64,000 nt of DNA from a virus: IMG/VR virus record IMGVR_UViG_3300042007_000202, positions 1-64,000 of that record, one strand, 5' to 3'. Below are positions 141 through 61,571 of the stretch, in pieces. A program made the translations under genes and the position numbers. The notes beneath the pieces are model-generated. The model saw only the letters and a program-made list of their open reading frames with translations, was not told the DNA's origin and did not search any database. Numbering within the stretch: the first letter of the stretch is position 1; each line of letters begins with the position of its first letter.

Positions 141-959
141 ATGGCCACCGCCTACATCGTCGCCGCCACCCCCTCCAGCCCCGAGCCCAAGCGCATCTCC
201 AACCTCAAGAGCGCCAAGGTGGAGGCCGACACCCGCGCCAAGCTGGACCGCGTGGACGTCGAGGTCCGCACCGTCGCCACCGGCAAGCTCACCTACACCG
301 CCCAGGGCGCGCCCACCCTGACCCCCGCCCCGGCGGCGCAGGCCGACGCCCCGGCCGCCGACGACGCCCCCCAGGAGGCGACGCCGGAGCCGACCGCCGC
401 CCCCGCCGAGGACAGCGACGCCGTCCCCGCCGACGAGCCCACCATCGACATGAGCGGCTTCGAGGCCGCGCTCGCCGAGGTCGTCTCCGAGAGCGACGAG
501 GACGGCGACGCCGCCCCGGCGGACGACGACGCCGAGGAGGGCTCCCAGGACGACGAGGGCGACACCCCGGCCGCCCCCGCCCAGGAAGACCACCGGGGCC
601 AGGCGGAGTGCGGCTGCTCCGTGGAGAAGATCATCGCCACCGGCGAGCACGGCAAGGGCTGCGCCGACGCCCCCAAGGCCCAGGCGGCGGCCAAGGCCGT
701 GGAGCGTGACAAGCCCACCCGCCCCGCCCGCACCGGCGGCGGCACCCGCCGGGAGGCGCTGGGCGCCAGCGCGGTGGACGGCTGGGAGCTGCTGTACGAC
801 AAGCCCAAGCAGAAGGCCCAGGTCGGCCGCAACAGCGACGGCAAGTACGCCCTCATCTGCACCACCCACAAGCACGCCCACCCGCTCACGCGGCTGGTGC
901 AGGAGCGCGGCCTGCGCGGCGGGAAGCGCTCCGTGTGGTGCCCCCAGTGCACCGACTGA
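141..959 (+). CDS. Early protein with acidic linker and C-terminal putative Zn module shared with 37242..38594
   Basis: RBS AAGGAGCCCGCC-ATG; C-terminus RREALGAS.VDGWELLYDKPK...C..H...WC..C. Confidence 0.85.
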   Translation: MATAYIVAATPSSPEPKRISNLKSAKVEADTRAKLDRVDVEVRTVATGKLTYTAQGAPTLTPAPAAQADAPAADDAPQEATPEPTAAPAEDSDAVPADEPTIDMSGFEAALAEVVSESDEDGDAAPADDDAEEGSQDDEGDTPAAPAQEDHRGQAECGCSVEKIIATGEHGKGCADAPKAQAAAKAVERDKPTRPARTGGGTRREALGASAVDGWELLYDKPKQKAQVGRNSDGKYALICTTHKHAHPLTRLVQERGLRGGKRSVWCPQCTD

Positions 960-970
960 TCCACGCAGAT
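957..970 (+). repeat. Family A 12-bp site fused to stop codon
   Basis: TGATCCACGCAGAT. Confidence 0.85.
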
Positions 971-1030
971 GAACTCGCCCGCCCGGCGCCTGCCGGGCGG
1001 GCGGCCCGCTACCGACAGGAGAACGCACCG

Positions 1031-1487
1031 CATGAACGCCACCGACAACAACATCGCGAAGCTGCCGCCGGGCTACACCCCGATCGCCCCCGGCGAGGAG
1101 CTGCCCGCCGGGCCCGCCGGGCCGTTCCGGGCGGGGAGCGCCGGAGCGATCCGGAACATCAACCCCCAGGAGGCCCGCGAGCTGATCGGCCAGGCGGCCG
1201 TGCGGTACGTGGCCGCCCGCCTGGACGGCAAGAGCGTCGCCCGGCACACCTCGCTCATGCTGCTCGGGACCTGGGAGCCCAGCCTGAACCCGATCCCGAT
1301 CACGAGCGACGGCTACCTGGTTGACGGCCTCAACCGGCTGATGGCCATCGTGATCTCCGGCACCACCCAACGCATGATCATCGAGCACGACCCGCGCCCC
1401 GTGGCCGAGCGCGGCATCGGCTTCCACTCCGGTCCCCGCGTGCGCGACATGGAGCACCTGCGCGGTCAGTCCGTCCCCGACTTCTGA
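1031..1487 (+). CDS. ParB/Srx N-terminal-like protein
   Basis: M..G.W...PI.I..DGYLVDGLNRLMAIV resembles the DG.HR ParB-N motif; RBS AGGAGA. Confidence 0.6.
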
Positions 1488-1500
1488 TCCGCGCGGATCA
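1485..1500. repeat. Family A site, perfect 16-bp palindrome
   Basis: TGATCCGCGCGGATCA overlapping the stop codon. Confidence 0.9.
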
Positions 1501-1558
1501 GAGAACCCGCCCGCCCGGCGCCCGCCGGGCGGGCTCACCCGTTAGCGAGGAGAACCGC

Positions 1559-1822
1559 ATGAAGCTCCACACCCACGCCGTAGGCAAGATCAGCGTCGTC
1601 GTCCTGGACAAGCACCGGGCCGTCCACCACGCCGCCGCCAGCACCACGGACGAGCTGTGGGCCTGGCTCCAGGAGCAGGACGCGGACGCCGCCCCCGGCA
1701 CGGCATTCTGCCTGGACGCCACCCAGTGGGCCCGGGTGGCGGCCGCCCTGGACCTGCATGGCACCGTTCACGTGGAGACCGAGTTCGACTGTGACCTCGT
1801 GGTCAGCAGGCACTTCCGCTGA
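1559..1822 (+). CDS. Hypothetical protein
   Basis: RBS GAGGAG; ends in a family A site. Confidence 0.7.
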   Translation: MKLHTHAVGKISVVVLDKHRAVHHAAASTTDELWAWLQEQDADAAPGTAFCLDATQWARVAAALDLHGTVHVETEFDCDLVVSRHFR

Positions 1823-1850
1823 TCCACGCGGATAGAAGGGGGAGTTCGCG

Positions 1851-2147
1851 GTGAGCGGACACATCGGCACGGATGACCTGCTCAGGCTGGTCAGCGCGCG
1901 CGACAGCGAATTCAGCCAGCGGCTGGAGAGGCTGGAGAGCATGTGCCGCGTGGCCATCTCGGACCTGGAGCGGCTGCTGCGTATGGCGGCGCGGGCCCAA
2001 GGCGTCCCTGAGGGGGGCCTGGAGGAGCGTGTGAGGACGGCCGTGGCCGAGGTTGTCCCGATGGCCGCCCGGCGGGCCCTGGAGGGTCACAGGAGCGCCC
2101 TGGAGGCGGCAGGCCGCGCGGAACCCGGCGCCACCGCCGGTACGTGA
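1851..2147 (+). CDS. Hypothetical protein
   Basis: RBS GGGGAG directly after a family A site. Confidence 0.6.
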   Translation: MSGHIGTDDLLRLVSARDSEFSQRLERLESMCRVAISDLERLLRMAARAQGVPEGGLEERVRTAVAEVVPMAARRALEGHRSALEAAGRAEPGATAGT

Positions 2148-2505: not shown

Positions 2506-2565
2506 CCAGCCCGCCGCCCGGCCGCCCGGCCGGGCGGCCAACCCCGCAGCCCTGGAGCGATCTAC

Positions 2566-2976
2566 GTGGATGAGCAGAGCCATACCGAGATCTGGGGCGA
2601 CGCAGAGGAAGAGGACGACGGCACGCAGGTGTGGACCCCTGACGGCCGCGTCCGGCTCATGGCGTTCCGCTGCACCACCTGCATCTTCCGTCCGGGCAAC
2701 TTGATGCACTTGGCGCCCGGCCGGGTGAAGGACATGGTGGAGGCGGTGATCCGCCGGGAGGGCCACATCCCCTGCCACGACACCCTGAGCTACAACCTCG
2801 GAGACCTGCCCGGAGCCATCTGCCGGGGCCAGGAACAGCACCCCAAGGCTGGGCCCCGGTCCATGTTCCTGCGCATCGCCCTGGCCCAGGGGGAGATCGT
2901 CCTGCTGCACCCGGACGGCCGGGAGGAGCGCGTGCCCTACACCGCCTTGCCGTCCGCCTACGAGGAAGAGGGCTGA
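2566..2976 (+). CDS. Cys/His putative metal-binding protein
   Basis: CTTC...CH...CRG pattern. Confidence 0.7.
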   Translation: MDEQSHTEIWGDAEEEDDGTQVWTPDGRVRLMAFRCTTCIFRPGNLMHLAPGRVKDMVEAVIRREGHIPCHDTLSYNLGDLPGAICRGQEQHPKAGPRSMFLRIALAQGEIVLLHPDGREERVPYTALPSAYEEEG

Positions 2977-4743: not shown

Positions 4744-5055
4744 ATGTACCGGACCCGCACCCGCCGCCACCACCGCGCCACCATCCTGGGCGCCCGCCGC
4801 CAGCCCGCGCTGATCACGGCACGCACCCTCCTGGACCGGCTCGGCCTCGGTGACGACTTCGCCGCCCGGTACGCCTCCCAGATCACCCGCACCGCCCGCC
4901 GCCTGGGCATCACCCCCGCCGCCCGCACCTGGACCCGCCACAACGGCCGCCAGCGCCCCACCGCCGCCTACGACCTGGCCACACAGGCGCTCGACCTGAT
5001 CCGTACCGTCATCGCCTACAAGCGCACGGCCGAAGCCTTCGGCCTGACCGCCTGA
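4744..5055 (+). CDS. Basic hypothetical protein
   Basis: RBS GAGGAGG; ends in a family A site. Confidence 0.75.
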   Translation: MYRTRTRRHHRATILGARRQPALITARTLLDRLGLGDDFAARYASQITRTARRLGITPAARTWTRHNGRQRPTAAYDLATQALDLIRTVIAYKRTAEAFGLTA

Positions 5056-5082
5056 TCCACGCAGATAGGACACCGACCCGCC

Positions 5083-6015
5083 ATGAGCGAAAACCGCACC
5101 CCCACCCCAGGCAAGAACGCCTGGATCGCCCGGCCGCGCCCCTACGAGAACGAGACGGTCAGCGTGGAGCGCGCCGCCGCCAACGTGCCGGACGGCTTCA
5201 CCCGCGACGTCGTCCTGTCCCAGGTGATCGACGAGCCCGGCAAGGGAGGCACGAACCCGCCCCGCCGGGAGATCCGCACCCGCATGCACGCCGCCGACGC
5301 CATCACCCTCGGCATCCACCTGGTGGAGAACGGCATCAACGCCGAGCAGCGCAACGCCGAGGAAGGCGCAGGAGCCCAGCGCACCCCCTACTTCGAGCAC
5401 CCGGCGGGCGACGACGACCGGCGGATGCCCGAGGACTTCGCCCGCACCAACCTCCGGCTCCTGGACGCGGCACTGGCGCGCGTCCAGCACTGGCAGGACA
5501 CCCACCCCGACGTGGCCGACTACCGCATCACCGGCTTCCTCAACGAAGGCCGAAAGGTCCGCAGCTACCTGCGGTACCTGTCGGACGACACCACCCCCGA
5601 CCTGGACGCCGCCCGCGCCGAGCTGGTGCGCAGCGGCTTCTTCGACGACGAGGAGCCCGCCGAGCAGCGGCGCGCCACCGCCCGCGCCGTCGGCATCCCG
5701 GAGGAGGCCGTGGAACCCGGCGCCCGCACCGGCCACGCGGCCACCGACGCCCGCCTGGCATCGGGCGAGGCCGCCCAGGGCAAGGTGCCCCGGCTGGGGG
5801 TGTACGGCCGGTACTTCGTCACGGCCAACACCAGCATCATGGTGCAGATCGCCAGCCTGGAGCCGGAGCACGTGCAGCTCAAAGTCGTGGACAGCGCGGC
5901 CGACGAGTACCCCGACGGCATCAAGGCGCCGTACTCCGAACTGGGCACCTGGCTCATCCTGGACGACCCCTCCAACTGGGTCGACATCAAGATCGGCCAC
6001 CCCGTCGCCGACTGA
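5083..6015 (+). CDS. Hypothetical protein
   Basis: Bounded by family A sites on both sides. Confidence 0.8.
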   Translation: MSENRTPTPGKNAWIARPRPYENETVSVERAAANVPDGFTRDVVLSQVIDEPGKGGTNPPRREIRTRMHAADAITLGIHLVENGINAEQRNAEEGAGAQRTPYFEHPAGDDDRRMPEDFARTNLRLLDAALARVQHWQDTHPDVADYRITGFLNEGRKVRSYLRYLSDDTTPDLDAARAELVRSGFFDDEEPAEQRRATARAVGIPEEAVEPGARTGHAATDARLASGEAAQGKVPRLGVYGRYFVTANTSIMVQIASLEPEHVQLKVVDSAADEYPDGIKAPYSELGTWLILDDPSNWVDIKIGHPVAD

Positions 6016-6046
6016 TCCACGCAGACAGAGAACCGAGGACCAAGCC

Positions 6047-6744: not shown

Positions 6745-7242
6745 ATGGCCGACATGATCAACTGGCCGGTGCGCACCGGCCTCTACGACGACAGCGGCGA
6801 AGGCGGGATGTTCGCCTACCTCGTGGTGAGCGAACCCCAGGCCCCCGACGACGCGTGCCACGTGGACGTCCACGCGTTCCTGAGCGAGCCGGACGTGCGG
6901 CTGCCGTACCGGATGGCCGAGCCCCGGCTGTGGGGCTCGGAGGACTACCACGACCGCGCCCGCACCAAGCTGCACGCGGCCCGCGCCGCGCTGGAGCGCG
7001 CGGGCGAAGACGAGCTGGCGAAGAGCCTGGCCGGGCTGCGCGGCGACGACGAGCTGTCACTGCCGCTGCGGGCGGCGGTGTTCCTGGGCGCCACCGGCGC
7101 GTCCCTGGTCCACAGGGGCCTCGGGGGCTACTTCGAGGCCACCCCGGGCGACCTGACGGTCACCGGGCGAGCCGTGTACGAGGCCCTGGCCAAGGAGCAC
7201 GGCGAGCGGGCCGTGCACATCATCACCTTCCTGGACACCTGA
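6745..7242 (+). CDS. Hypothetical protein
   Basis: RBS AGGAG; ends in a family A site. Confidence 0.75.
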   Translation: MADMINWPVRTGLYDDSGEGGMFAYLVVSEPQAPDDACHVDVHAFLSEPDVRLPYRMAEPRLWGSEDYHDRARTKLHAARAALERAGEDELAKSLAGLRGDDELSLPLRAAVFLGATGASLVHRGLGGYFEATPGDLTVTGRAVYEALAKEHGERAVHIITFLDT

Positions 7243-7263
7243 TCCACGCAGATAGGAGCACAG

Positions 7264-9612: not shown

Positions 9613-10265
9613 ACCCGATGGACCCGATGGACCCGATGGCGCCGGTCCCGGCCGAAGCGATCCTGGTCGTCCTGGACGGCATGCTCAAGGAGTGCGGCGA
9701 CGAGTGGGACCAGCCGCCGGAGTGGGGCTTCCTGTACGCGCCGCCCCTGAGCCTGACCGCCGAGGTGGCCGAGGAAGTGGACGCCGATGTGAGCGCGGTG
9801 CGCGGGGTGATGGCCGCGCCGGTGGCGCTGCCGCTTGAGGCCTGGCGGCAGTTCGGGAGCCCGCTGGAGCTGGTGGGGATGTTCGCCGCCCTCCTCAAGG
9901 AGCCGGACAGCGATCGCGGCGCCGCGATCGTGCGGAAGCTGCGCTCGACGGCACCGGTGATGGGGGCGTGGCTCAGGGTAGAGGCCTGGGCGCCGCCCGT
10001 ACGGCTGGAGGCGGAGTACGCCCGGCGACGCAGGGCCGGTAAGGACATGGACCTGTCGGTGCTGCCTGACAGGCTGGAGTCGCGTGTGGCGTGGGCGGCT
10101 GACGCCTGGGGCCGCAACTTCGTCGGCCGCCGCGTGCGGGACTCCGACGAATTCGAGTGGGACTGGACCGAGCCCGGCCGGGACCGCCTGAGCGCGCATC
10201 ACCCGGCGCTGGTGCACCTGCGGACGATGGTGGACGCGGTGGCCACTCCCCTCCCCACCGTCTGA
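9609..10265 (+). CDS. Hypothetical protein, paralog of the previous gene
   Basis: WDQPPEWG and EAWAPP motifs; ends in a family A site. Confidence 0.8.
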   Translation: MNPMDPMDPMAPVPAEAILVVLDGMLKECGDEWDQPPEWGFLYAPPLSLTAEVAEEVDADVSAVRGVMAAPVALPLEAWRQFGSPLELVGMFAALLKEPDSDRGAAIVRKLRSTAPVMGAWLRVEAWAPPVRLEAEYARRRRAGKDMDLSVLPDRLESRVAWAADAWGRNFVGRRVRDSDEFEWDWTEPGRDRLSAHHPALVHLRTMVDAVATPLPTV

Positions 10266-10279
10266 TCCACGCGGACAGC

Positions 10280-10321
10280 CCGCAGCCCCCGGGCCGGGGA
10301 CCGCCGGACCGGGGGCTGCGG
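10280..10321. terminator. Hairpin between convergent early and lysis genes
   Basis: CCGCAGCCCCCGG / CCGGGGGCTGCGG 13-bp stem. Confidence 0.7.
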
Positions 10322-10333
10322 TGCTGTGAGGGG

Positions 10334-13214: not shown

Positions 13215-13242
13215 GCGTGCAGCCTCGCTGTATCCGCGTGGA

Positions 13243-13704
13243 TCAGAACAGGGTGCCGTCCGCCGGAGGCAGAGCCCGCTCGGTGGTCGGCGGGTGATGG
13301 AAGATCTCCGTCCACCCCTCCTCGCCCCCGGCGGCCACCCGGCGCCACGCGGCCATCTCGTCACAGCGGGGACAGAACCGCGCCCAGTGCGTGTACACCC
13401 AGTACGGCTTCCGCTGCACCCGGACCCACCGGGACCGGCCGTCCCTGGTCTGCGTGGACCGGGCAACACGTTCCCACGTGGGCTCCGGCGTGTAGAGGGT
13501 CTTCCCGCTGATGTTCCGCAGCCGTGGCCACGCGCACGTCTCGCAGTCCGTCTCCGCCTGGCTGCCGTTGCTCAGGCAGATGGTCAGGGTGAGCGCCCGG
13601 GTCCACCGGTCATCCCACCGGATCTCCCCCAGCAGCGGGTCCTCCACCGGCAGGGCCGGGATGATCCTGCGCGGGCCCAGCTCTTCAACGTCCCAGTCGT
13701 CCAT
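13243..13704 (-). CDS. Cys-containing hypothetical protein
   Basis: CETC and CPRC; RBS GGAGG; ends in a family A site. Confidence 0.7.
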   Translation of the reverse strand: MDDWDVEELGPRRIIPALPVEDPLLGEIRWDDRWTRALTLTICLSNGSQAETDCETCAWPRLRNISGKTLYTPEPTWERVARSTQTRDGRSRWVRVQRKPYWVYTHWARFCPRCDEMAAWRRVAAGGEEGWTEIFHHPPTTERALPPADGTLF

Positions 13705-20809: not shown

Positions 20810-23800
20810 TCAGATCCCCGACGCGCGGGCGACATGGCCGTACAGGTGCTGCGCGAGGACCATGGCATCCGTCGCGGGGGTGGTGATGTTCCAGGTGTGG
20901 CTGGGCGCGGGGGCGGGCGGCTGCTTGAGGGCGCCGGAACGCTTGAGCAGGTCGACCAGGCCGGACTGGTGGGCGAGTTGCACGGCGCGCGCCGGGCGCG
21001 TCAGCGGCACGACGACTTCCTTACCGGCCTCACCGATCAGCGCGCGGGTGGGCATCGTGACGATGCCGCCGTCGGCGAAGGGGAGGAGCTTGCGGACCGA
21101 GCTGGGGATCCCGGACTTGATCTTGCTCATGATCTGCGAGCCGATGTCCCCGATGGCTCCGACGATGCGGGAACCGAGGCCGGAGAAGAGGCCGACGATG
21201 CCGGAGATGAGATCGGACACCGCTGAGCGCGCGGAGCTGGCTGCCGACTGGAACACCCCTGCGATGCGGGAGCCGAGGCCGGAGAGGGTCGAGACGATGC
21301 GGCCGGGCAGCGCGGAGAAGAACGAGGTCACCGAGCTGAAGCCGGAACGGACCGCGCCGGAAGAGGACGACGCCGCCGACCGGAACACCGACGACACGCG
21401 GCCGGGGATGGAGCTGATGAAGCCGATGATCCGGCCGGGCAGCGCGGAGAAGAACGAGGTCACCGCCGCGAAGCCCGAGCGGACGGCCCGGGTCGCGGCG
21501 TCGGCCGCCGAGGTGAACAGGGCCACGAGCCGCACGCCCAGCGACTGGAGGGCGCTCAGGATGCGGCCGGGCAGCTCGGTGAAGATGAAGATGATGGCGG
21601 CGATGCCCGTCAGGATGGCGATGGCCACCCCGGCGACCGCGCTGGTGAAGAGGTCGATCAGGCGGCCGGGCAGCGACTGGAGGAAAGCCAAAATCCGGCC
21701 GGGCAGCGCGGCGAAGAAGCCGACCACGCCGTCGATCCCCGTGGATACGGCGGAGGTGACGGTGGCCCAGGCCGAGGTGAAGAAGCTGACCAGCATGGAG
21801 CCGAACGCCGACAGTGCCCCGACCACGGTGTCGGGCAGGCGGGTGATGAACTGGATGACCGAGGTGACGCCCCGGACCAGGCCCACCAGCGCCGACACGA
21901 CGCCTCTGATGATCGGGACGACGATCTTGATGATCGCCCATGAGGCGAAGGCGGTGGCGACCTGGAGGACGGGGCCGAGGACCTGGATGAGGCCGGAGAC
22001 CAGCGGGGCCAGCGAGACGACCAGTTCCCCGAGCGGGGGCACCAGGGGCACCAGCGCCTGAACCAGGGCGGAGAAGGCGTCGACCAGGCTGGGAAGCACC
22101 GGCAGCAGCGCGCCGATGAGCTGCCCGACAAGCGGAACCACGGCATCCGCCACCTGGACCAGGGCATCCGCCACCTCATTCAGCAGCGGCACGAGCGCCA
22201 CAGCGGCATCCCCCAGGGCAGAGCCCAGCGCCTCACCGACCTGCGTGACGACCCCGATCAGAGGAACGAAGATCGGCAGGAGGCGGCCGATGAGGTCCAC
22301 GATCGGCCCGAGCAGCGGCAGCACAACCTTGAGCGCAGCGCCCAGAACCGCGCTGAACGCCTGCCCCAACTGGGCGACGATCGGGGCGAGTTGAGCGAAG
22401 ACGGGGGCGAGCCCCGTGATCACCGAAGCCAGGCCCTGGCCGAGCTCCGCCGCCACCGGCCCCAGCGCCGCGCCGAACTGCTGCACCGCCCCCGTCAGCA
22501 CCGGCATGATCGGCGTCAGCGTCGTGGCGATGGCATTGACCACCGGCCCCAGCGCCGCCCCCAGCGTGGACAGCGCCGTACCGAGCACAGTGGAGAAGAG
22601 CTGGCTGAGCTGAGTGATAAGCGGCAGTACCGGCTGGATGGCCTGCCGCATAGCCACGAAGACCTGCGTCAGTGCCCCGATGGACCCGCCGCCCCCGGCC
22701 GCCAGCGCCGCGAACAGGTCACCGAACAGCCCGACCAGGCTTGAGATGAACGCGCCGAGCTGCCGGAAAGTGACCAGAGCATTGGACACCCACGCGACGG
22801 CGGAGCCGGACTCGGCCGCCCGGGTGAGGAACTGCCCGAAGCGGGCGCCCAGGTTGGCCAGCGCGCCGCCGAGCCGACCGGCGAACCGCTCGCTGATGAC
22901 CCCGGCCATCTTGGTGAAACCGGCCACCACCGGGCCGATGGCCGCCGCCAGGCCCTTGGTGACCTTCCCCGTCCCCTGGAGGATCGAGGTCACGTTGCGC
23001 ACTCCCGTGGACGTGCGCAGGAAGTTGGCGATGCGCTGGCCCGCCAGCCCGAAGTTCCCCGCGACTTCGGCCAGCCCCTTCTTCAGCGGCCCGCCGAGCG
23101 CCTTGGCGACGCCGGTGATCTGCCCTTCCAGCGGCGCGAAGAACGCGTCCTGGACGGTGGTCTTCAGCTTGTCGAACGCAGGCTTGAGGGCCCGCAGCTC
23201 CCGCGCGGCGGCCTGCGCCTGGGGGCTGAGCTTCTCCAGCGCCTCGTTGAACTTCTCGGCGTCATCGCCCAGGGCCGCGCCGAACGCCTCACCGACCCCG
23301 CTGAGGGCGATCTTGAGCGCCGAGACGGCGACGATCATTCCGGCGATGGTCGCTGGACCGGCCGCGATGATGCCGACGGCCGGAGCCACCGACGCCGCGA
23401 ACGACGCGAGCGCGGCAGCCGCCACCAGCAGCGCCGGGCTCAGCGCGACAGCCAGCCGCAGCATCGAGGCGAGGCGCGTACCGAACGTAGAAGCCATCCC
23501 GGCCGCGTTGCCCAGCGAACGGGAAAGCTGGTTGGTGTCAGCGCCCACGTTCAGGTTCAGGTCAGGCAGGTTGTGCGCCCGGATCGCCTCATCGAGCCGC
23601 GTCAGGTCCGGATCCACGCGGATACGGATCGGATCCAGCCCGCGCATCGCGCGTTCCAGGTCGCGGCGGAAGCGGGCAGCGTCCGCCTGCACCCGGACCG
23701 TGATACCGCCCAGGCCGCGCAGGTCGCGCTGGAGCTGAGTACGGAACCGGCTGGTGTCGCCCTGCACGCGGACGCTGACCGCCATGGCGCGGACGTCGCG

Positions 23801-24659: not shown

Positions 24660-25412
24660 ATGGACCAAGCCGACGCCCTGACCCCCTGGCAGTTGGAGAC
24701 GGCGATCAAGATGCTCCGCGTGGGCAGCACCGCCACCGAAGCCGCCGAACTCATCGACGCCAAGCCCGCCACCCTGTACGCCACCGCCCGCACCAGCACA
24801 GACCTGCTCCTGGCCCTCGCCGGACACGACCCCTACGCCTACGACGCCGACCAGATCCTCCAACAGGCCGACTACATCCGGCTCATGGCCATGGGCTTCA
24901 CCCCCACCCAGGCCGCCCGCGTCCTGTTCCACGGGGATGAACGCATCAAGGGCTGGCGCCAGAAGAACGAGACCTTCGCCAGAGTCGCCGACTACGCCCG
25001 CCGCCTGCACCCGCCCCGACTCGTCCAGCGCCGCGAACGCCGCTTCACCCCGCACCGGGTCAGGGTGTTCCTGGAAGCCCTGCGCGACGGCATGACCACC
25101 GTCATGGCCGCCGAGGACGCCGGAATCACCCACGCGGTCATCTACCAGCGCCGCCGCCGCGACGCCTCCTTCCGCCAGGCCATGGACGCCGCCCGCGCCG
25201 AGGGCCTGGCGCACCGCGAACCGAAGGGGCCGGTCATCACCGAAGCCCAGTGGGAGAAGTTCTGGCGCGGCCTGGAAGCCGGGATGACGCTGCGCCGAGC
25301 CGCCTGGGGCGCGGACATCAACCCGCAGATGATCTACGACCGCCGCCGCGCCGACGAGCAGTTCCGGCAGGCGACCAACCGCTGGCGCGGGAAGCCCGGC
25401 GCGGTAGCGTGA
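24660..25412 (+). CDS. Tandem helix-turn-helix repeat protein
   Basis: About four repeats of the type L..G.T...AA...GI....IY.RRR.D..F. Confidence 0.75.
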   Translation: MDQADALTPWQLETAIKMLRVGSTATEAAELIDAKPATLYATARTSTDLLLALAGHDPYAYDADQILQQADYIRLMAMGFTPTQAARVLFHGDERIKGWRQKNETFARVADYARRLHPPRLVQRRERRFTPHRVRVFLEALRDGMTTVMAAEDAGITHAVIYQRRRRDASFRQAMDAARAEGLAHREPKGPVITEAQWEKFWRGLEAGMTLRRAAWGADINPQMIYDRRRADEQFRQATNRWRGKPGAVA

Positions 25413-25659: not shown

Positions 25660-26226
25660 TCAGCCGCCGCCCAGCTCCGCGAACGCCTTCTTCCAGTCGG
25701 CGGCCTGCGCCTGCCGGTCGAACCCCGGCATGATCGCCCGGCGGCCCCGTCCCAGGGTCTGGCGCGGCGGCGCGTTGAGCTGGGTCTCCAGCTTCCGTAG
25801 GTCCTTCTCTTCCTGGCACCCGGCCCGCAGCCACGAGTAGACCGCCGAGCACACCCGGTGTGCTGGGGCTTCTTCGGGGTCGAACCCGACGCTGACGGCC
25901 CACGCGGAGAACAGGCCCCAGTGCTCGCGGGCGGTCACGGCCAGCCGGGCGGCCACATGCCACTCGAAGCCGTACACGGGCTTCGCCAGGCCGTATGCCA
26001 GGCGGGCGCAGGTTCGCAGGCCCACCGGCCCGTACGGGTCGCCCAGGAGGGCGTAGAAGCGGTCCGCGGAGTCCTCCGCGAGGCAGCCGGGCACCAGGGC
26101 GTACCAGTTGCCGACGGCCGCCCACCCGCACACCTCCAGTCCATCCACGGGGATGGACAGGGTGTAGGGCTCGCCGTCCAGGGTGAAGGTCAGGGGCCCC
26201 GGCCGGGCCGGGCCCAGGCGGGTCAT
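25660..26226 (-). CDS. Tail assembly chaperone-region protein 2
   Basis: Upstream of the tape measure; TGATG coupling. Confidence 0.65.
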   Translation of the reverse strand: MTRLGPARPGPLTFTLDGEPYTLSIPVDGLEVCGWAAVGNWYALVPGCLAEDSADRFYALLGDPYGPVGLRTCARLAYGLAKPVYGFEWHVAARLAVTAREHWGLFSAWAVSVGFDPEEAPAHRVCSAVYSWLRAGCQEEKDLRKLETQLNAPPRQTLGRGRRAIMPGFDRQAQAADWKKAFAELGGG

Positions 26227-27291: not shown

Positions 27292-27312
27292 GCCTTCACC
27301 TATCCCCGTGGA

Positions 27313-27591
27313 TCAGGCCTGGCTCTCCTGCCAGGCGTAGATCCGCTGCGCCCGCACCGCCCCGATCCCGGTCACTTCCTCCGGCGCGGCCAGCGCGCGC
27401 AGACGTTCCAGCGTGGTGACCTGGCCGCCGGTACGGCGGTTGTGGCGGGCCAGGAACCCGGCGATCACATACGCCTCGTCGTCGCCCCCCAACGCCTCCG
27501 CCACCTCCCGCAGCGCCGCCTTGTGCGCCTCCCGCCGGGCGCGCCGCCACTCGTTCGCCATGCCGCGCAGGGTACGCGCCAGGTACGACAA
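27313..27591 (-). CDS. Small helix-hairpin-helix protein
   Basis: EVTGIGAVRAQRI. Confidence 0.65.
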   Translation of the reverse strand: MSYLARTLRGMANEWRRARREAHKAALREVAEALGGDDEAYVIAGFLARHNRRTGGQVTTLERLRALAAPEEVTGIGAVRAQRIYAWQESQA

Positions 27592-28630: not shown

Positions 28631-28947
28631 TTCCCGCTCCCCCCTTTTCCTTATCCCCGTGGATCGGCACAGGCGTTCCCGTTTCTTCGCTCCGCTTAGC
28701 GGACGGTGGTGGTCGGCCACCACCGTAGAGGGAAATGCTGGCAGGCCCGCCGTTGCCGAGCCCGGCGATTGCATAAGGATTCACACTCCCCCATACGTCC
28801 CCGAATTCCCCGGCGCTCATCCGCCAGCCGAATCCGCCGGAGCGGACGGGCCCGGAGGGCGCGGACCCCGCAGCGCGCTCACGATCGCTCTGGGAGAAGT
28901 CGGAGGAAACCTGCCGTTCGCCCTGCCCCCGGGCCGCCCGTCCACGG

Positions 28948-34733: not shown

Positions 34734-35278
34734 GAGGGCTCCTGTGCGTCTTGCTGGGGCCACGGCAGGCCCTTCTGGAGGGCGGCGTATGCCTCCGCCC
34801 TGAAACGCTCCCACTGCGCCGTGTGGAGCGTCCTGAGCATGTGGTCGGCGGCGGTCGCCGCCTGCATCCACAGGATGTCGTCCTGGTGCTTGTCGTTACA
34901 CTCCCTCAGCGCGAGGACCTTACGGGCGGACATGAAGTACGTGGTGCGGGCCTGGGCGCCGCCGATCGGCTGGCCCAGCTCCTTCCACTGGAAGGCCTCC
35001 ATGCCTTCGACCAGCCCGTCCATCTCCATCGCCGCCAGGAGCCGTTCCGTGGCCGCGTAATCGATCACGGAACGGGCCCAGGTGACGGCTTCGTTCCTGC
35101 GCTGGCCGGTGGGCTGCACTCCGTACAGGCGGGCCGCAGCGATCAGCAGGTGGGCGCGGGTCATGGGGGCGGGTGCGCTGTCCAGGATGGTCAGGATCTG
35201 CCCCTTGGTCGGCACGGGCTTGTCCGCGTGGATGGGGGCGGGGTCCCCGGCGAGGGGGTACCGGCGGGCCCGGCTCAC
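34730..35278 (-). CDS. Hypothetical protein
   Basis: Coupled ORF; contains a family A site. Confidence 0.65.
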   Translation of the reverse strand: MSRARRYPLAGDPAPIHADKPVPTKGQILTILDSAPAPMTRAHLLIAAARLYGVQPTGQRRNEAVTWARSVIDYAATERLLAAMEMDGLVEGMEAFQWKELGQPIGGAQARTTYFMSARKVLALRECNDKHQDDILWMQAATAADHMLRTLHTAQWERFRAEAYAALQKGLPWPQQDAQEPS

Positions 35279-37173: not shown

Positions 37174-37241
37174 GGGGGCCTCTCGATCTGCGTGGATGGG
37201 GCCGGGTGGGCCCCCGGCCACCCGGCCGGGGGCGGGGGTGG

Positions 37242-38738: not shown

Positions 38739-38747
38739 GGGCCCCGG

Positions 38748-39619: not shown

Positions 39620-39660
39620 GTGGAGGTCCCCCCATGTGCTGTGCGCTGATCGTGACGAGG

Positions 39661-39705: not shown

Positions 39706-39767
39706 CCCCCTCCGGGGGCGGCGCTCCGTCGCTATCGTGAGCCCGAGCGCTGCCCGCCCGGCGGCGC

Positions 39768-41167: not shown

Positions 41168-41222
41168 AGATCGGTCCCTCCTCGCAGATCGTGTAGCCCG
41201 GACAGCGTATCCACGCAGACCG

Positions 41223-44375: not shown

Positions 44376-44452
44376 GGCACCTCCTGAACGTGCGGCCGGG
44401 CGGGCGGCCCGTGGGCCACCCGCCCGGAGGGGTGATCTGCGCGGATAAGGGG

Positions 44453-46597: not shown

Positions 46598-47010
46598 TAC
46601 TGGTCATCCCCTTCCTTCGTCTGCGCAGATCGCGCGCTGGTGGCCTTCTTCGCGGCCGTCTTCTTGGCCGCTGCCTTGCGGGCGGCCGTCTTCTTGGCGG
46701 CCGGGCGGTGGGCCTTGGGCGCGTCGGGGCCGGGGCCCTCCTCTTCCGGCCCCGACGCGGGCTCGGCAGGCGCCGCCGCGCGCGGCGCGCTGGGCGCGGG
46801 CGCGGGGGGGCTGGGGTCTTCGGGCGGCGGGGCCAGTCCCGCCTGCTCGTAGACGCGGCCGACGGACTCCTCGGGGACGCGCAGCGCCTGGCTGCCCGCG
46901 CCGGACACCGTGGTCACGTACTCGGCCCCGACCACGGCCAGAGCGGCGCGGGCCAGCCGCTCCATGGACACGTCCGCTGTGGGGTAGACCAGCGCGTAGT
47001 TCGTGGTCAT
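46597..47010 (-). CDS. Virion-region protein with histone H1-like tail
   Basis: PAAKKTAARKAAAKKTAAKK. Confidence 0.7.
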   Translation of the reverse strand: MTTNYALVYPTADVSMERLARAALAVVGAEYVTTVSGAGSQALRVPEESVGRVYEQAGLAPPPEDPSPPAPAPSAPRAAAPAEPASGPEEEGPGPDAPKAHRPAAKKTAARKAAAKKTAAKKATSARSAQTKEGDDQ

Positions 47011-49824: not shown

Positions 49825-49960
49825 GGCGTGGGCACACCCTTTCGGGTATCTCGTTCCGTGCCCTCGGCCCATCAACCAGCAGAGCGTCCTACGTAGCGTA
49901 GCCGACTGCTCACGCTTCGTGCCCGAGCGGGCGTCCATCCGCGCAGATCAGGTGTCAGAT

Positions 49961-50479: not shown

Positions 50480-50540
50480 CCCACCCCCGGGGGCGGCCAC
50501 CCGGCCGCCCCTCCCCGTCCGCGCAGATAGAGAGGCCGCC

Positions 50541-50951
50541 ATGCCCCAGCGGCGCACCCCCGCGCCCCCGTCCACCCGCCCGCTCCGCACCGACGACGAA
50601 CTCCACATCCTGGCCCTGGGTGCTCTGGCCGAACGCCACGGCGCCGGGCCCGACGAGGCCCTGGCCCAGCAGTACGCCACCGAGTACGACGAGATCATGC
50701 GCGCCTTCCGGGGCGCCCGCCGCCAGCGCATGGCGCACCTGTACCCGAACGTCGCCGCGCAGCACCTGGACGGCCAGGTGCTCACCGTGCTCAAAGACGA
50801 CCTGGACGGCGAGAGCACGGCGGACCTGGTCATCACGCTGGTCCATCACCTGGAGATGCTGACCAAGAGCACCACCTACGACGACGGACACGCCTTCAAG
50901 GTGGCCGCTCTCTGGCGCGAGCTGGCCTTCCGGGGCATCACCCTCACCTGA
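50541..50951 (+). CDS. Hypothetical protein
   Basis: Bounded by family A sites. Confidence 0.75.
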   Translation: MPQRRTPAPPSTRPLRTDDELHILALGALAERHGAGPDEALAQQYATEYDEIMRAFRGARRQRMAHLYPNVAAQHLDGQVLTVLKDDLDGESTADLVITLVHHLEMLTKSTTYDDGHAFKVAALWRELAFRGITLT

Positions 50952-50976
50952 TCCACGCAGATAGGACACACACCGC

Positions 50977-52525: not shown

Positions 52526-52690
52526 CTGTTCCTCCTCCACCGGCCCGCGCCGGACGCTAACGTTGTGTGTGCAACCGGGCACGGAACGAGACGGCGAGAA
52601 GGCGTCCTGTGCGCGGCCTGTCGGGGGGTCCCCCGGGCGTCGCACTGGGCGTCGTGCGAGCAAGCCGGGGGACCACCTGATCCGCGTGGA

Positions 52691-53194
52691 TCAGGCAGGG
52701 TCGAGCCACTTCACCCGCGTTCGCCCCTCGTGGCCGTTGATGGCCATGGCCTCTTCGATGGACGGCCACTCCACGATGGAGCGGACTTCGCCCAGCCACA
52801 TGAGCACCACCCCGCCGTGGGGGAAGACGGCGCCCTCCACGGCGATGCCCGGCCCGCTGGTGCCGGTCTCGTCCTCGCGGCGGTCGTAGATGAACCGGCG
52901 GGGGGCGACCTCGTAGTCCAGCGGCTCACCGATGCTGGTCGCGCACCACCGCAGCTTCCCCCGGCCCCACCAGTCCTCCATCAGGGCGGCCATGTTGGCG
53001 TACCGCTGGCAGGTCTGGCCGGACTGCGACATGACGACGATGCGCCCGTCGGAGAACACCGCGCCGGAGGCGATGGGGACCTGGTTGCGGTCCAGCATCA
53101 CGAAGGTGCGCAGGTTGCCCTCGTAGGTGGCGGGGATGAGGTGCCCCTTGTTGATCTCGGCCGGGATGACCTCATCCTCAGTGTCGACTGGCAT
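52691..53194 (-). CDS. Conserved phage protein with tandem domains (R..D.[ST]G.SG.G..EG..F family)
   Basis: RREDETGTSGPGIAVEGAVFP.G.VV..W...GHEGRTRV.W. Confidence 0.75.
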   Translation of the reverse strand: MPVDTEDEVIPAEINKGHLIPATYEGNLRTFVMLDRNQVPIASGAVFSDGRIVVMSQSGQTCQRYANMAALMEDWWGRGKLRWCATSIGEPLDYEVAPRRFIYDRREDETGTSGPGIAVEGAVFPHGGVVLMWLGEVRSIVEWPSIEEAMAINGHEGRTRVKWLDPA

Positions 53195-53431: not shown

Positions 53432-56400
53432 TCAGCTCGCGCGCGCGGCGGCCTTCATCGCCTCCCACTTCTGGATGGCCGCACAGGCTTCGGCCTTGCT
53501 GCCGGGGTTGACCTGCTGGATGCCGGGCCAGTTCAGGTCGCCGGAGGCGCACATCTTCTTCGCGGCGTTGACCCCGGTGGCGATGGCCCGGCTGGTGTCC
53601 ATGCCCTTGCTCTTGAGGTGGTCAGCGATCCGCTTGATGTACGGCGGCAGCCCGCCTTGCTGGTCGACCCAGTTCTTCGCCAGGGCGATGTCCTGGTTGC
53701 TCGGGGTGGGCAGGCCGCCGAACCCGGCCAGGGGCATGGGCACTTCGGTCTTGCGCTGGGGCTGGAGGCCGCTGATGCGCTTCCTGGCGAGGGCTGTGCG
53801 GCGGGCCAGGTCGGTGGCGCGGCGCTGGCTGGCGGTCTCCCTGAAGGCGGCCATGCGCTCTTCCAGGGAAGCGGCGCGCTGGCGGCGGGCGGCGCGGCCT
53901 TCCAGCTCATCCGCGACGGCCGCCGCCAGGTGCACCGGCTCCGCCTGGCGCAGCTCGAACGCCTGGAGGCCGCTGGCCTGGGCGGCGGGCTGGCTGTCGG
54001 GGGCGGAGGGCGGGGTGGCCTCTTCCTCCTTGGGCCAGAACCCGGCCGCGACGAGGGAGAAGAACGAGCCGTCGGGGCCGGTCTTCTTCGCGGCGAGGGG
54101 GAAGCCGGGGCTGTTGACCGCCAGCGCGGCGATCAGCTCGGCGCCGCCCCGGACCTCGCGCCAGTCCCCGGAGAACGAGGCGAGGGAGAGGCGGAGGCGG
54201 TCTTCCTGGCTGACGAAGGGGAGCACTGCCCCGGCGACCCAGATGCCGTGGGCGTCTTCACCGACGCGGACCACGGCGGCCTGGGTGCCGGTGTGGTCGT
54301 AGTGGGACATGGCGCCGGTCGCGCTGGCTGTCAGCTTGGCGTGGCCGGTGTTCATGGTGATCAGGCCGCAGCGGACCGTGCCTGTGCTGGTGCGGACGGG
54401 GCGCAGGTTGTAGTAGGCGTAGCCGGAGGCGGAGTGCGGCGGGGGGACGCAGCGGTCCTTGAAGCCGACGTGGCAGGAGCCCCAGGCGGCGAGGTAGCCG
54501 GATACCTGCCCGGTCTCTACATCCACGCGGATGGAGTGGGCGCCGGAGCTGCCGTCGGGCTGCTCGAACCACTCGCCGGGCGGGGTCCAGCCGGGGGCGA
54601 AGGTCTCTGTGGTGGCGGAGGCGGTGATGGCGACGGCCTGGCACGGCTCGCATCCGGCCGGAGGCTCGGACGCCTCGGCCTCCTGCACGATGGACTCGGC
54701 CTCGTCCACCACGGCGGCGGCGGCCTCGGTCTCCGGCGCCCCGGCTGCTGTGATCTTGTCCCACGGGGTGGCCTTGACCTCCTCGCGCAGGGCGCCCATG
54801 TCCGCCAGTCCGGCCGGGTCCCACCACGCGACGACCTCAATACTGTCGCCGTCGGGGTCGTCCGGGTTCAGGACGGTGCGGTCGTCGGGGTCGGGGTTGA
54901 TGCCGACGCCGCTCTCCTCCGGCACCAGCAGCAGGAAGCCCTGGTACACGCCGTTGTCGCTGGTCCAGGTGTCCACGATCTCGCCCTGGCCGCGCATGTC
55001 GCAGCCGGTCTCCTCGCAGAACTCCCGGAAGGCGGCGTCCTCGGCGGTCTCGCCCTCCTCGATGCCGCCGCCCGGCCACTCCCACATGCCGGAGGCGGGG
55101 TCTTCGTCGTCCAGGGCGCGCTGGATCAGCAGCACGCGGCCGGTGTCCTGTGCCTTGACCGCCAGCCCGGCGTGCGTGGGGGTGGATGCCGGGCTGGCGG
55201 GGTCTTCGTCCTCCGCGAGACGCGTGACGCCCATCTGCGCGGATGGGGTGACGTCGTCGGGGGTGGAGGGGCGGGCGCCGGGGGCGTCGCAGGGGGCGGG
55301 CTCCCATCCGGTGCCGTCCTCGGTCGGCGCGACGCACTCCCCCGTCACGACAGGGGTTTCAGGGTCAAGCTCTTCAGCGGCCTGCTCGTCGTCTGCGGCG
55401 ATGTCCTGGGGGACATCCCCCGCCTCGGCCTCCTCGTCATCCTCAGTGGCCGTCTGGGAGTCCTCAGCCGGTACCGCCTCTTCCTCCGGCTCCACGGGTG
55501 CTTCGCCCTGGGCCTGTTCCGGCTCGAACGGGCCGTCGCCGGTGGGGTTCGCCGGGACCGCTTCGGGGTCTTCGCAGTCAGCCGCCATCCACGCGCCGAT
55601 CTCGTCCTGCTTCACGCAGCCCCAGGCCGGGTCGTAGCCCACGATCTCCGAGAACGCCGCAGCGGTGAGGGCCTGGCCGTCCGCGTCCGCGAGAGCGATG
55701 GCCGCGTTGGGGAAGGCCGGGTGGGCCAGGAGGGTGGCGCCCATAATGCGCCAGCCGTCGTAGACGTCGCCGACCATGAGGGAGCGGTCGTTGGGGTCGC
55801 CGTCCGGCACGATGGTGCCGTCTTCCCTGAGGAGCACCTGGTGGGCGCTGGCGTCGTCCACGTCCAGACTGACGAAGCGGACGAAGCCCAGGCCGACCTT
55901 GCGGGCCAGGTCGCGCCCGACCGGGTCCTCCATGTCGAAGCGGCCCTCGCCCCACACCTGGCTCCCTTCGGTCCAGATGCGGTCGATGACGCCGACGCCG
56001 AGTTCGGAGCCGTCGTGGCCCTTGGCCAGGGTGCCCTGGACGAGGAGCGGCAGCGGAAGGGGGCGGGAGCGGACGCCGCCCTCGGGGGTGGCGAGCATTC
56101 GCTGATCCGCGGACCACTCGTCCATGAAGCCCAGGACGCCGCGCCACCGGCCGCTGGGCTCCACGGTCACGGGTCCTGTCTCGGTGACGGTGGGCGTGGT
56201 CATGGACTCCTCCTGTGGTGCTGAGGCGGCGGTGAGGGCGGGGTCCCCGGCGGGGCCGTAGCGGGCGGAGCAGCGGCAGTTGATGACTTCGCCTGCGGGG
56301 CCGAGGGGGTCGCCGGGGAACTGGAGGCGGTGGCCGCCGATCTCGAACGGCTCGGTCAGGGGGCGGACTTGGCCGTCGGCGTTGAGGTGGGTCTCGCGTA

Positions 56401-59622: not shown

Positions 59623-59764
59623 GCTCCACAGAGTAACGATGTGCTCACGGACTGTCGCGTAAGTGGGTGACTGGCTTCCTGGGGAAGGGCGCTGGCCTGC
59701 ACGGATGCGGCCCGGCCGGGCGGGCGGCCGGGCACTGTCAGTGGCGAGCCGTAACTTTCCGTGA

Positions 59765-60235
59765 ATGGACGCCGAGGAGTGGGCCGGGGAGCTGCTGCGG
59801 GTGATCCGCGCGTACGGCCAGGGCCGGGCGCGGACCTTCGCGGAGGCGGGCTACCCGCTGCCGTGGGGGGTGGAGCTGACGCTGCCCACGGGGGCCCGCA
59901 TCTATCTCCAGACGGTGACCGACCCCTCCGACTCCGACCACCCGCCCACGGGGCCCGTGGCGCCCGCGATGGACCCGGTGGAGCTTCCCGCCGAGGGGCC
60001 GACGGAGCTGGCCGCCGTGGAACGCTGGCTGGGCTGGTGCCTCACCGGCCATCAATCCGCGTGGATCAGGGAGGTGGAGCTGTTCCAGGCGCGGCGCGGC
60101 CGTCGCTCCGTCCCCCACGGCCTTGCCGTCAAGGCGCACTCAGGGGCGCGGATGTGGATCTACTTCCGGCATGCCACCCCCGCCGGGCGCGACCCGCGCG
60201 GCATGGCCGTGTGGCGGCTCCAGCCGACCGTGTAG
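59765..60235 (+). CDS. Hypothetical protein
   Basis: Ordered-looking ORF. Confidence 0.6.
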   Translation: MDAEEWAGELLRVIRAYGQGRARTFAEAGYPLPWGVELTLPTGARIYLQTVTDPSDSDHPPTGPVAPAMDPVELPAEGPTELAAVERWLGWCLTGHQSAWIREVELFQARRGRRSVPHGLAVKAHSGARMWIYFRHATPAGRDPRGMAVWRLQPTV

Positions 60236-60239
60236 GGCC

Positions 60240-60590
60240 TCAGCCGCCCGGGGGCGGCACGATCATCCGCGCGGGGCGGCCGGTGGTGCTGATGCTGAAA
60301 TCGTCGAGCCAGGCGAGCGCGGCATGAACGGGGTCTTCACCGTCGGGATACTCGTACAGGGCGAAGCACATGATTCCATCGCCTGTCGACATATGGACCA
60401 GGTCATCTTCCGCCCCCCGGCGCCACGTGCGGGATGCCGCGCCCATGAGGTCGGGGTAGGTTTCGGCGAGACGATCAATGATCGCCTGCATCTCGGCGTG
60501 CGCCTGCTCGTGGCTGTAGCCGCCCGTGCCGTAGACGGGCGAGCCGAAGCCGTCGCTGATGCTGAGCCTGACGGTGAGGGTGTTCCACAT
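60240..60590 (-). CDS. Hypothetical protein
   Basis: ORF. Confidence 0.55.
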   Translation of the reverse strand: MWNTLTVRLSISDGFGSPVYGTGGYSHEQAHAEMQAIIDRLAETYPDLMGAASRTWRRGAEDDLVHMSTGDGIMCFALYEYPDGEDPVHAALAWLDDFSISTTGRPARMIVPPPGG

Positions 60591-60741
60591 GGGCCGACCC
60601 TATTGGGCGGCGGGCGGCGCGGGGCCGGTTCGGCGGCGCTGCGCCGCGATGTCAGCGGGAGCGCCTACCGTGGTTGACGTAGGCCCGCCCCGGACATCCC
60701 ATGTCCATGCTGCTGGCGCTCGCGCGGGGCGGGCCTCGCTC

Positions 60742-61020
60742 TTATCCGTTGACCTTGTCGAACGTGGGCGTCTCCTCATGCTCCACGTCCAGGCGCCACT
60801 TCGCCATGCAGCCGTCCTGGTAGACGGCCATGGTCGGCAGGTGGCCGCCCTGGGGGTCGGAGACGAACAGCTCCTTGTAGAAGGTCAGTACGGGGTCGCC
60901 GTGCCAGGGGCAGCCCTTCTTGAGTTCTTTCCGGCGGTCGACCACGCGCTGGAGCGTGGCGGCGTCCCAGTCGGGCCGGGGGAAGCCGGGCGGGAAGCTG
61001 GCGAACGGGTCTTCGTTCAT
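60742..61020 (-). CDS. Hypothetical protein
   Basis: ATGA coupling. Confidence 0.6.
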   Translation of the reverse strand: MNEDPFASFPPGFPRPDWDAATLQRVVDRRKELKKGCPWHGDPVLTFYKELFVSDPQGGHLPTMAVYQDGCMAKWRLDVEHEETPTFDKVNG

Positions 61021-61343
61021 GTCGTGATACTCCGGGGCGGGGTCAGCGGCAGCCCGTCAGCCGCGACCCAAGGCGGGTTCTTGAAGTCCCAGGGCTCAGC
61101 TGTGAGCTGCATGGCGTGGGTGGGGTTGTCCGCGCGGTGGACTTCGGCCCAGGCGTCCCTGTCGGACGCCGAGAAGAAGGGCTCCCGCACGGTGCAGCAG
61201 CAGCAGGAAGCGTAGTACGCCCAGAGTTCGGTGAGGCCGTTGGCGTAGGTGACGATGGTGGCGCCGGTGGCCTGGCCGTCTGCGTTGACGGGCATCTCGC
61301 GGCGGATAATGTCGCGGTTCTTGTCCGCGTGGATGGCGCTCAC
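61017..61343 (-). CDS. Hypothetical protein
   Basis: ORF with two family A sites at its 5' end. Confidence 0.55.
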   Translation of the reverse strand: MSAIHADKNRDIIRREMPVNADGQATGATIVTYANGLTELWAYYASCCCCTVREPFFSASDRDAWAEVHRADNPTHAMQLTAEPWDFKNPPWVAADGLPLTPPRSITT

Positions 61344-61571
61344 CGGGTACGCCTACCCGGCCGGAAGGGAATGATCTGCGCGGATCGTTCGATGGGGGTA
61401 GTCATGGGTGGCTTGGTCTCCATCACAGCACCGTATTGGTGTAGCGCCGTCCGGAGTGGCTGGCGGCCGGTGGGGGTCGGGGGCAGCTCACGCGGACGGG
61501 CGGAGAAGGGCGGGCCGGTCAGGCTGGCGAGAAGGCGAGGAGACGCGGCGGCCCGGACAGGTGAAGCTGGT

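Follow-up and report, generated by a model that had tools for sequence, protein, structure and literature searches.

Introduction

What does a short palindrome do in tens of copies along one phage genome, and what reads it? This question is raised by the first 64 kb, here called the window, of IMG/VR record IMGVR_UViG_3300042007_000202 (G000; 108,671 bp, 71.5% G+C, estimated completeness 99%). A first-pass annotation of the window had pointed to about 27 copies of a 12-bp quasi-palindrome, often placed in the joint between a stop codon and the next Shine-Dalgarno (SD) sequence, and had read them either as a genome-wide operator or roadblock network or as a standard junction for inserting genes. 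We find that the set of sites is real, strongly selected and specific to one lineage, and that it is of a kind of repeat already described in actinophages. We propose, with about an even chance of being right, that the sites form the genome-wide operator network of a single phage-encoded DNA-binding protein acting on transcription.

Dispersed palindromic repeats are known from actinophage clusters O and EG, none of them with a known binder or role. The lineage described here is a rich case, with 40–60 sites per genome and four related genomes at 70–90% identity showing which positions matter, and, since a cultured carrier strain exists, also a tractable one for the role of such repeats. The relatives are a 111-kb IMG/VR contig syntenic with G000 at 75–87% DNA identity (G001), a 12-kb fragment (G005), the 106,095-bp contig C11 in the genome of the isolate Streptomyces andamanensis PCU 347 (G006) and a 27.7-kb contig in the genome of the isolate Streptomyces sp. 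NPDC051907 (G007). None of the GenBank phages compared is close to G000, whose capsid protein is about 36% identical to capsids of Microbacterium, Gordonia and Mycobacterium phages. The full genomes of the lineage are Streptomyces phages of 106–111 kb. Contig C11 contains the entire phage, circularly permuted with respect to G000 and without host DNA at either end, which suggests an episome or an actively replicating phage in the cultured isolate. Given this permutation without host flanks, a ParA-type ATPase and a tyrosine recombinase, G000 is probably a Streptomyces phage that persists as an episome, i.e. a phage-plasmid. Gene calls used throughout are crude and based on codon usage.

Motif, enrichment and form

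With the two strands counted separately, the pattern ATCCRCGSRGAY matches 26 times, at 25 positions, within the window, where 0.27 matches are expected (100 dinucleotide shuffles, standard deviation 0.49, maximum 2), in agreement with the earlier estimate of fewer than one chance copy per 64 kb. Over the whole 108.7-kb genome 45 strand-matches are found, and the reversed pattern, serving as control, gives none. Unbiased 9-mer enrichment recovers the same palindrome family without prior knowledge, and 37 of the 45 ATC-N6-GAT words in G000 belong to it. Inside genes, 15 sites compare with 0.57 in synonymous-codon shuffles of G000, and the corresponding values in two relatives are 30 versus 1.15 and 21 versus 0.88. 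The enrichment, for which the first-pass annotation had proposed a codon-preserving shuffle as a check, thus persists, and the two types of shuffle together rule out chance or a codon artefact.

The motif is better described as the degenerate palindrome ATCYVCGBRGAT. Its invariant parts are the outer ATC/GAT and the central CG, with the four A:T pairs as the most invariant positions, while positions 4, 5, 8 and 9 vary as mirror pairs. Weaker preferences in the flanks, for C at −3 (36 of 45) and for G or A at +14, extend it to an 18-bp dyad, and both the TGA stop and the AGGA Shine-Dalgarno sequence fall within these flanks. Copy numbers in the lineage range from 39 to 59 per genome. Among the 27 starts listed originally, 24 are exact matches and three (2560, 46619 and 50517) are one-mismatch variants. 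Those at 2560 and 50517 agree with the symmetric form of the motif. The original list lacks an exact copy at 21735.

Placement of the sites

The sites in the window are the following, with positions counted in the window.

959..970, plus strand: site ATCCACGCAGAT, its first A being the last base of the TGA of gene 141–959; a GC-rich hairpin follows (−32 kcal/mol, z −3.4)
1487..1498, no strand: perfect palindrome ATCCGCGCGGAT that shares its first base with the TGA of gene 1032–1487; CTG/CAG flanks extend it to 18 bp, and a GC hairpin comes next
1822..1833, plus strand: stop-site-SD joint; TGA of gene 1559–1822, site, GGGGGA, GTG at 1851
2560..2571, minus strand: variant site ATCCACGTAGAT at the 5' edge of gene 2566–2976, kept at the same place in both relatives
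5055..5066, plus strand: stop-site-SD joint with ATCCACGCAGAT; TGA, site, AGGA, ATG at 5083; no RNA structure (z 0.2)
6015..6026, plus strand: stop-fused site, GAC-end variant; gene 6047 begins 20 nt downstream
7242..7253, plus strand: stop-site-SD joint; TGA, site, AGGAG, ATG at 7264
10265..10276, plus strand: stop-fused site at the end of a rightward operon; a strong hairpin follows (−47 kcal/mol, z −4.9), with no downstream gene on this strand
13232..13243, minus strand: site fused to the TGA of leftward gene 13243–13704
21735..21746, minus strand: site inside gene 20810–24493 (1227 amino acids), absent from the earlier list and conserved in G001
23612..23623, plus strand: nearly symmetric site inside gene 20810–24493
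26143..26154, plus strand: site inside gene 25660–26226, kept in G001 and G006
27302..27313, minus strand: minus-strand stop-site-SD joint; TGA of gene 27313–27561, site, AGG, ATG at 27291
28653..28664, minus strand: site preceding the tyrosine recombinase gene (27671–28630) by 22 nt
35222..35233, minus strand: GAC-end variant near the 5' end of gene 34730–35278
37186..37197, minus strand: intergenic site, 12 nt before the ATG that opens gene 36751–37173
41209..41220, plus strand: intergenic GAC-end variant 2 nt past the stop of gene 41223–44375, one of two joint sites that point against transcription
44435..44446, minus strand: site 6 nt past the stop of gene 44453–45022, then a GC hairpin
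46619..46630, minus strand: one-mismatch variant ATCTGCGCAGAC, a weak member, inside the 3' end of gene 46597–47010
49937..49948, plus strand: intergenic site where the capsid gene and gene 50057 diverge, with the promoter-like cassette at 49963 following 14 nt downstream
50517..50528, plus strand: variant GTCCGCGCAGAT; gene 50541 begins 12 nt downstream
50951..50962, plus strand: stop-site-SD joint; TGA, site, AGGA, ATG at 50977
52680..52691, minus strand: site with CTG/CAG flanks, fused to the TGA of gene 52691–53194
54521..54532, plus strand: site inside the gene of a 1190-amino-acid head polyprotein
55233..55244, minus strand: second site within the head polyprotein gene; G006 has it, G001 has lost it
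60055..60066, minus strand: site in a region of uncertain gene call (59765–60235, plus strand)
61323..61334, minus strand: GAC-end variant at the first codons of gene 61017–61343, paired with the site at 61374, 51 bp apart; the same pair and spacing occur in G001
61374..61385, minus strand: intergenic site 30 nt upstream of gene 61017–61343, partner of the site at 61323

Sites are 5–11 times denser between genes (1.2–2.0 per kb) than in genes (0.17–0.4 per kb). When context is counted over 46 sites of G000, GAC-end variants included, 17 precede a start codon by no more than 40 nt, typically by 8–22 nt, and six of these 17 are additionally fused to the preceding TGA. The site is located upstream of the Shine-Dalgarno sequence, and its distance to the start codon ranges from 3 to 37 nt. 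Six or seven further sites, stop-fused or stop-adjacent, have a strong GC hairpin behind them (−32 to −47 kcal/mol, z −3 to −5.8), seven adjoin a conserved promoter-like cassette, eleven lie deep in genes, and a few fall outside all of these classes. The stop-site-SD joint is a very compact gene boundary, and the link to the cassette is a fixed one. Eleven copies in the window, as had been noticed before, share their first A with a TGA stop (959, 1487, 1822, 5055, 6015, 7242, 10265, 13232, 27302, 50951 and 52680), and those at 5055, 7242 and 50951 run on into AGGA..ATG as described.

The cassette consists of GACACGAGAT, a TTGCAT-like box, a spacer of about 17 nt, a TGC-TAATCT-like box and CGTGTC, so that an 11-bp inverted repeat surrounds a −35-like and an extended −10-like box. 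About 25–30 copies are present per genome, and both architecture and position suggest that they are promoters. At 85935, 96500, 97764, 98979, 98508 and 100384 a site lies exactly 6 nt upstream of the upstream arm of the cassette. Seven cassettes of G001 show the same 6-nt placement, with differing linker sequences. The cassette at 85.9 kb is bracketed by two sites, the second of them just downstream of the −10-like box. The cassette may itself constitute a second operator network.

Orientation of the sites and structure of the RNA

The first-pass annotation had stated that asymmetric stop-fused copies always point with transcription. This holds for co-directional joints almost without exception, where the C4/A9 asymmetry, read on the sense strand, follows transcription in 33 cases against 2 (p about 4e-8), although orthologous sites are not independent. 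It does not hold in genes, where orientations of 18:13 and 17:18 reveal no strand bias. Many of the sites are symmetric. The four copies reported to run against transcription (23612, 26143, 41209 and 54521) do so, but those at 23612 and 54521 are nearly symmetric.

The common stop-site-SD joints show no RNA fold (z about 0). With the C4/A9 variant on the sense strand, the transcript contains a C-A mismatch, where the opposite orientation would give a U-G pair, and at joints the sense hairpins are weaker than the antisense ones in 46 cases versus 21 (p 0.005), a difference that is not found in genes. The orientation bias is therefore most simply explained as avoidance of mRNA structure beside the ribosome-binding site, since the variant chosen does not fold there. 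A polar roadblock is a possible alternative source of the bias. Dyad symmetry, the unbiased copies in genes, the copies upstream of cassettes and those at operon ends without a downstream gene (10265 and 13232) point to a site that would be read on double-stranded DNA by a symmetric dimer.

Conservation and restriction to one lineage

In alignments of G000 with G001, motif columns are 92% identical, compared to 75–80% in the flanks. G001 has kept all 26 alignable intergenic sites and 10 of the 15 in genes as sites, and G006, which is more distant, has kept 11 of 15 and 8 of 10, respectively. Substitutions between the relatives fall on the degenerate motif positions, and at the joint at 27302 the G006 site differs at four bases yet fits the pattern. 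Consequently, what is retained is a putative binding-site function, beyond mere sequence identity.

Outside the lineage the motif is not found. Relatives with 50–64% capsid identity contain no motif copy and no substitute motif was found in them, more than 60 loci around related capsid genes contain no copy, and a 15-mer scan of IMG/VR returned outside the lineage only single chance matches, on contigs without a second copy. In the S. andamanensis genome, 39 of 48 sites are located on the phage contig, which is about 360 times denser than the remaining 8.8 Mb, and the nine sites there are close to the estimate of about 10 from base composition. None of 400 other Streptomyces genomes has more than two matches of the 15-mer. 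A regulon of a host transcription factor is ruled out by this chance level on the chromosome and by the at most two matches in each of the 400 genomes. Since the motif is restricted to the phage lineage and host counts are at chance level, the putative binder is expected to be phage-encoded.

Candidate binders

Three conserved proteins carry weak helix-turn-helix (HTH) signals, encoded at 71982–72257, 104885–105565 and 24660–25412. Searches of PDB sequences and GenBank phages returned no homologue of these conserved candidates in one or both of the two sets. The protein at 24660..25412 had been put forward in the first-pass annotation together with the recombinase and a ParB-like protein; of these three, the first retains its weak signal, nothing was found that ties the tyrosine recombinase to the sites, and the third is considered below. 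Two clear winged-helix proteins (93688–94634) were rejected as binders, being absent from relatives that share the motif. An ops element of the NusG/RfaH type was likewise rejected, as no NusG-like gene was found, and no ribbon-helix-helix (RHH) proteins were found.

In the ParB-like protein (69592–70419), an acidic linker joins a ParB N-terminal domain (Pfam E 0.005; PHROG 723) to a C-terminal domain, and no DNA-binding domain or HTH was found in it, which makes it an unlikely binder of the parS type. Its gene has a motif site 3 nt before the start. It belongs to an operon at 65.7–70.4 kb that also encodes a Tet_JBP dioxygenase (66772–67713) and an exonuclease-like gene; no C5-methyltransferase was found in the phage. 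In ParB-dependent phage thymine dioxygenases, ParB is an activator without a DNA-binding domain (PMC13229309). By its gene content, the operon matches this class, which suggests thymine hypermodification of the phage DNA and makes the ParB-like protein less likely as the binder of the sites.

The ParA/MipZ-type ATPase gene (80859–81551) matches CbiA, MipZ and AAA_31 and is conserved in both full-length relatives. Downstream of it, gene 80311–80844 encodes a basic protein of 177 amino acids without a family match, which may be a DNA-binding partner of the ATPase.

Further features of the genome

Examples of the promoter-like cassette and of a family of strong GC-rich hairpins are given below.

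Window 53, 2146, 3023, 4668, 38646/38677, 39690 and 49963: promoter-like cassettes
Window 977–1003, 1509–1534, 10277–10323, 44385–44425 and many others: GC-rich hairpins

The hairpins (GCCCGCCCGG, a short loop, CCGGGCGGGC) lack T tracts and occur after genes and before promoter-like cassettes; they are likely terminators or RNA-end structures. The cassette is often followed by a GGGGGGC...GCCCCCC hairpin and by ACCACC in the leader.

A block of about 12 kb (window 27300–39750), containing the tyrosine recombinase gene and about 25 small genes, separates in G000 the tail-assembly genes 25660–27291 and 39768–41167, homologues of which adjoin each other in distant relatives. The segment 70516–71981 is specific to G000 and encodes a clear HTH_3 protein (71557–71832) and a 333-amino-acid protein, possibly a moron or a defence pair; at its place, G001 has the small HTH gene and the ParB-like gene a short distance apart.

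Discussion

We propose a model in which one phage-encoded, sequence-specific protein would bind the double-stranded sites as a symmetric dimer, reading the outer ATC/GAT triplets and the central CG and tolerating changes at positions 4, 5, 8 and 9. At gene boundaries the bound protein would form a roadblock or insulator between neighbouring genes or transcription units, in the manner of mycobacteriophage stoperators. On a subset of promoter-like cassettes, where a site lies about 58 bp upstream of the presumed start, with one cassette having another directly past the −10-like box, the protein may act on initiation. Such a protein-binding network is the best supported of the explanations weighed here because of the selection on the sites, their dyad symmetry, their preference for intergenic positions, the fixed placement at cassettes and the restriction to one lineage.

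Several observations weigh against this model. No binder was found for the sites, with the conserved HTH candidates being weak, and neither an L5 gp71-like nor any other recognisable repressor was found among about 60 proteins in Pfam/PHROGs searches and six-frame scans for HTH families, which are not exhaustive. A simple consensus promoter scan does not call the cassettes. Several sites are found directly before strong hairpins that could terminate alone, rendering a roadblock there redundant, and about a quarter of the sites lie deep in genes, where a roadblock would shorten transcripts. Finally, the dyad repeats of Clusters O and EG are still without known function, a dimeric binder being presumed (PMC4351075, PMC7302621).

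Episomal maintenance raises the question whether the sites serve the replicon rather than its genes, i.e. whether they act like centromeres or help to organise the DNA of a phage-plasmid, with the partner of ParA as their binder, a protein that perhaps would also be a global repressor like RK2 KorB. The encoded ParA-like ATPase, the circular permutation between assemblies and the S. andamanensis contig without host flanks fit such an episome, and KorB, Noc and parS sites are palindromes of about this size. However, the search for a ParB-family protein with a DNA-binding domain was negative, the sites do not cluster near parA, 40–60 single dispersed sites far exceed known plasmid centromeres, and the repeats of an unrelated 103-kb Streptomyces phage-plasmid form clustered arrays, not dispersed joints. 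Neither the preference for gene joints nor the fixed spacing to promoter-like cassettes is expected of a centromere. We regard this explanation as unlikely. Still less probable is an element acting in the mRNA. Situated shortly before ribosome-binding sites, it could be an operator of translation, a site of RNA processing or a small hairpin, like the start-associated sequences (SAS) of Cluster K or the T4 RegA/RegB targets. The 17 of 46 sites that end at most 40 nt upstream of a start codon and the co-orientation of the asymmetric joint variant with transcription speak in its favour, but the motif is palindromic, copies in genes show no strand bias, copies occur upstream of promoter-like cassettes and at operon ends without a downstream gene, and the distance to the start codon varies. 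In addition, the common joint variant is unfolded, and the sense hairpins are the weaker ones.

The second proposal of the first-pass annotation, a standard junction for gene insertion, fares worse than its operator or roadblock network. In this scenario the sites would be recombination joints, either as short conserved sequences or as tyrosine recombinase targets, used for the exchange of gene cassettes. Single genes are indeed bracketed by sites, and gene 1032–1487 with its site-plus-hairpin unit is absent from both relatives, where modules are arranged differently, but this is an anecdote and no pattern. With breakpoints taken as the limits of segments lacking alignment to G001 or G006, 7.9% (G001) and 9.2% (G006) of them are found within 25 nt of a site, compared to 12.5% of gene ends generally, so that breakpoints are no closer to sites than gene ends are. 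A length of 12–18 bp is too short for the core site of a tyrosine recombinase, and the copies in genes and at promoter-like cassettes would be left unexplained. The Cluster O repeats gave the same negative result (PMC4351075), and we consider this scenario very improbable. We give equally little credence to the sites being preferred targets or boundary marks of a ParB-dependent thymine dioxygenase and a glycosyltransferase, with modified thymines at gene boundaries affecting transcription like trypanosome base J. This class of dioxygenase has been proposed to act sequence-selectively and possibly in an epigenetic-like manner (PMC13229309), and it would accord with the Tet_JBP gene beside a ParB-like protein without DNA-binding domain, with the lack of a detectable C5-methyltransferase and with the four A:T pairs as the most invariant motif positions. 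The specificities reported are, however, trinucleotides (NTC, NTR) and not 12-mers (PMC13229309), no link between operon and motif was found beyond their co-occurrence in one lineage, and Cluster O phages, which have similar repeats, gave no match to the dioxygenase. The idea that bulky modified thymines at the palindromes form a base-J-like mark which stops or gates RNA polymerase at gene boundaries, on which the sequence data are neutral, is very improbable; if true, it would be a prokaryotic-virus counterpart of base J at trypanosome transcription stops.

For the operator network, identification of the binder would tell whether the sites serve prophage gene silencing, lytic timing or DNA organisation. 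Such a binder could also supply Streptomyces and other high-GC hosts with a compact, orthogonal pair of operator and repressor.

Comparison with known systems

Among elements tied to gene starts or gene exchange, the SAS of Cluster K and EF phages are asymmetric, contain the ribosome-binding site and lie at a fixed distance of a few bases from the start (PMC3203893, PMC7302621). Like SAS, the sites described here are a conserved motif that shortly precedes the start codon of many genes within one phage cluster, but they are palindromic, lie upstream of the Shine-Dalgarno sequence at variable distance and also occur away from starts. Integron attC sites, which are long imperfect palindromes bounding gene gain and loss, differ both in length, the present sites having 12–18 bp, and in that breakpoints are not enriched at the present sites. 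With the KorB operators (OB) of RK2 and with Noc and ParB sites, which measure 13–16 bp, the present sites share the form of dispersed palindromes on a replicon with a ParA-type ATPase. KorB serves in partition as well as in global repression. In contrast to these systems, no ParB-family protein with a DNA-binding domain was found here; copies are also several times more numerous and are associated with gene joints.

The stoperators of Cluster A mycobacteriophages comprise 20–30 sites, mostly not at promoters, which are oriented with transcription and block elongation (PMC6550527); they have also been reported from relatives of Streptomyces phage R4 (PMC10276819). Like those of Cluster A (L5, Bxb1) and of the R4 relatives, the sites described here are short, number in the tens genome-wide, lie mostly in short gaps, with some at promoters (here promoter-like cassettes) and most elsewhere, and are lineage-specific (PMC6550527, PMC10276819); joint sites are likewise oriented with transcription. 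The analogy to L5 drawn by the first-pass annotation is therefore apt for the layout. It fails for the site itself, since stoperators are asymmetric sequences of 13–14 bp without dyad symmetry, bound by a repressor monomer, whereas the present sites are palindromic and unoriented within genes. No gp71-like repressor was recognised in the non-exhaustive scan of about 60 proteins.

Cluster O mycobacteriophages have 17-bp dyad-symmetric repeats in more than 30 copies, about a third of them in genes and unlinked to rearrangements (PMC4351075), and Microbacterium phages of Cluster EG have 18-bp inverted repeats 14–22 bp upstream of starts (PMC7302621). The sites of the present lineage resemble both in being multi-copy short palindromes that lie mostly in short intergenic gaps, often shortly before a start codon, and to a minor part in genes, are conserved across diverged relatives and are unlinked to rearrangements. 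They differ in sequence and host genus, in the many copies that are fused to TGA and abut a Shine-Dalgarno sequence, in the strand-biased joint variant and in the subset at a fixed position beside a promoter-like cassette. In form, the sites are thus closest to the repeats of Cluster O and Cluster EG, combining a stoperator-like layout with the dyad symmetry of the Cluster O and EG repeats.

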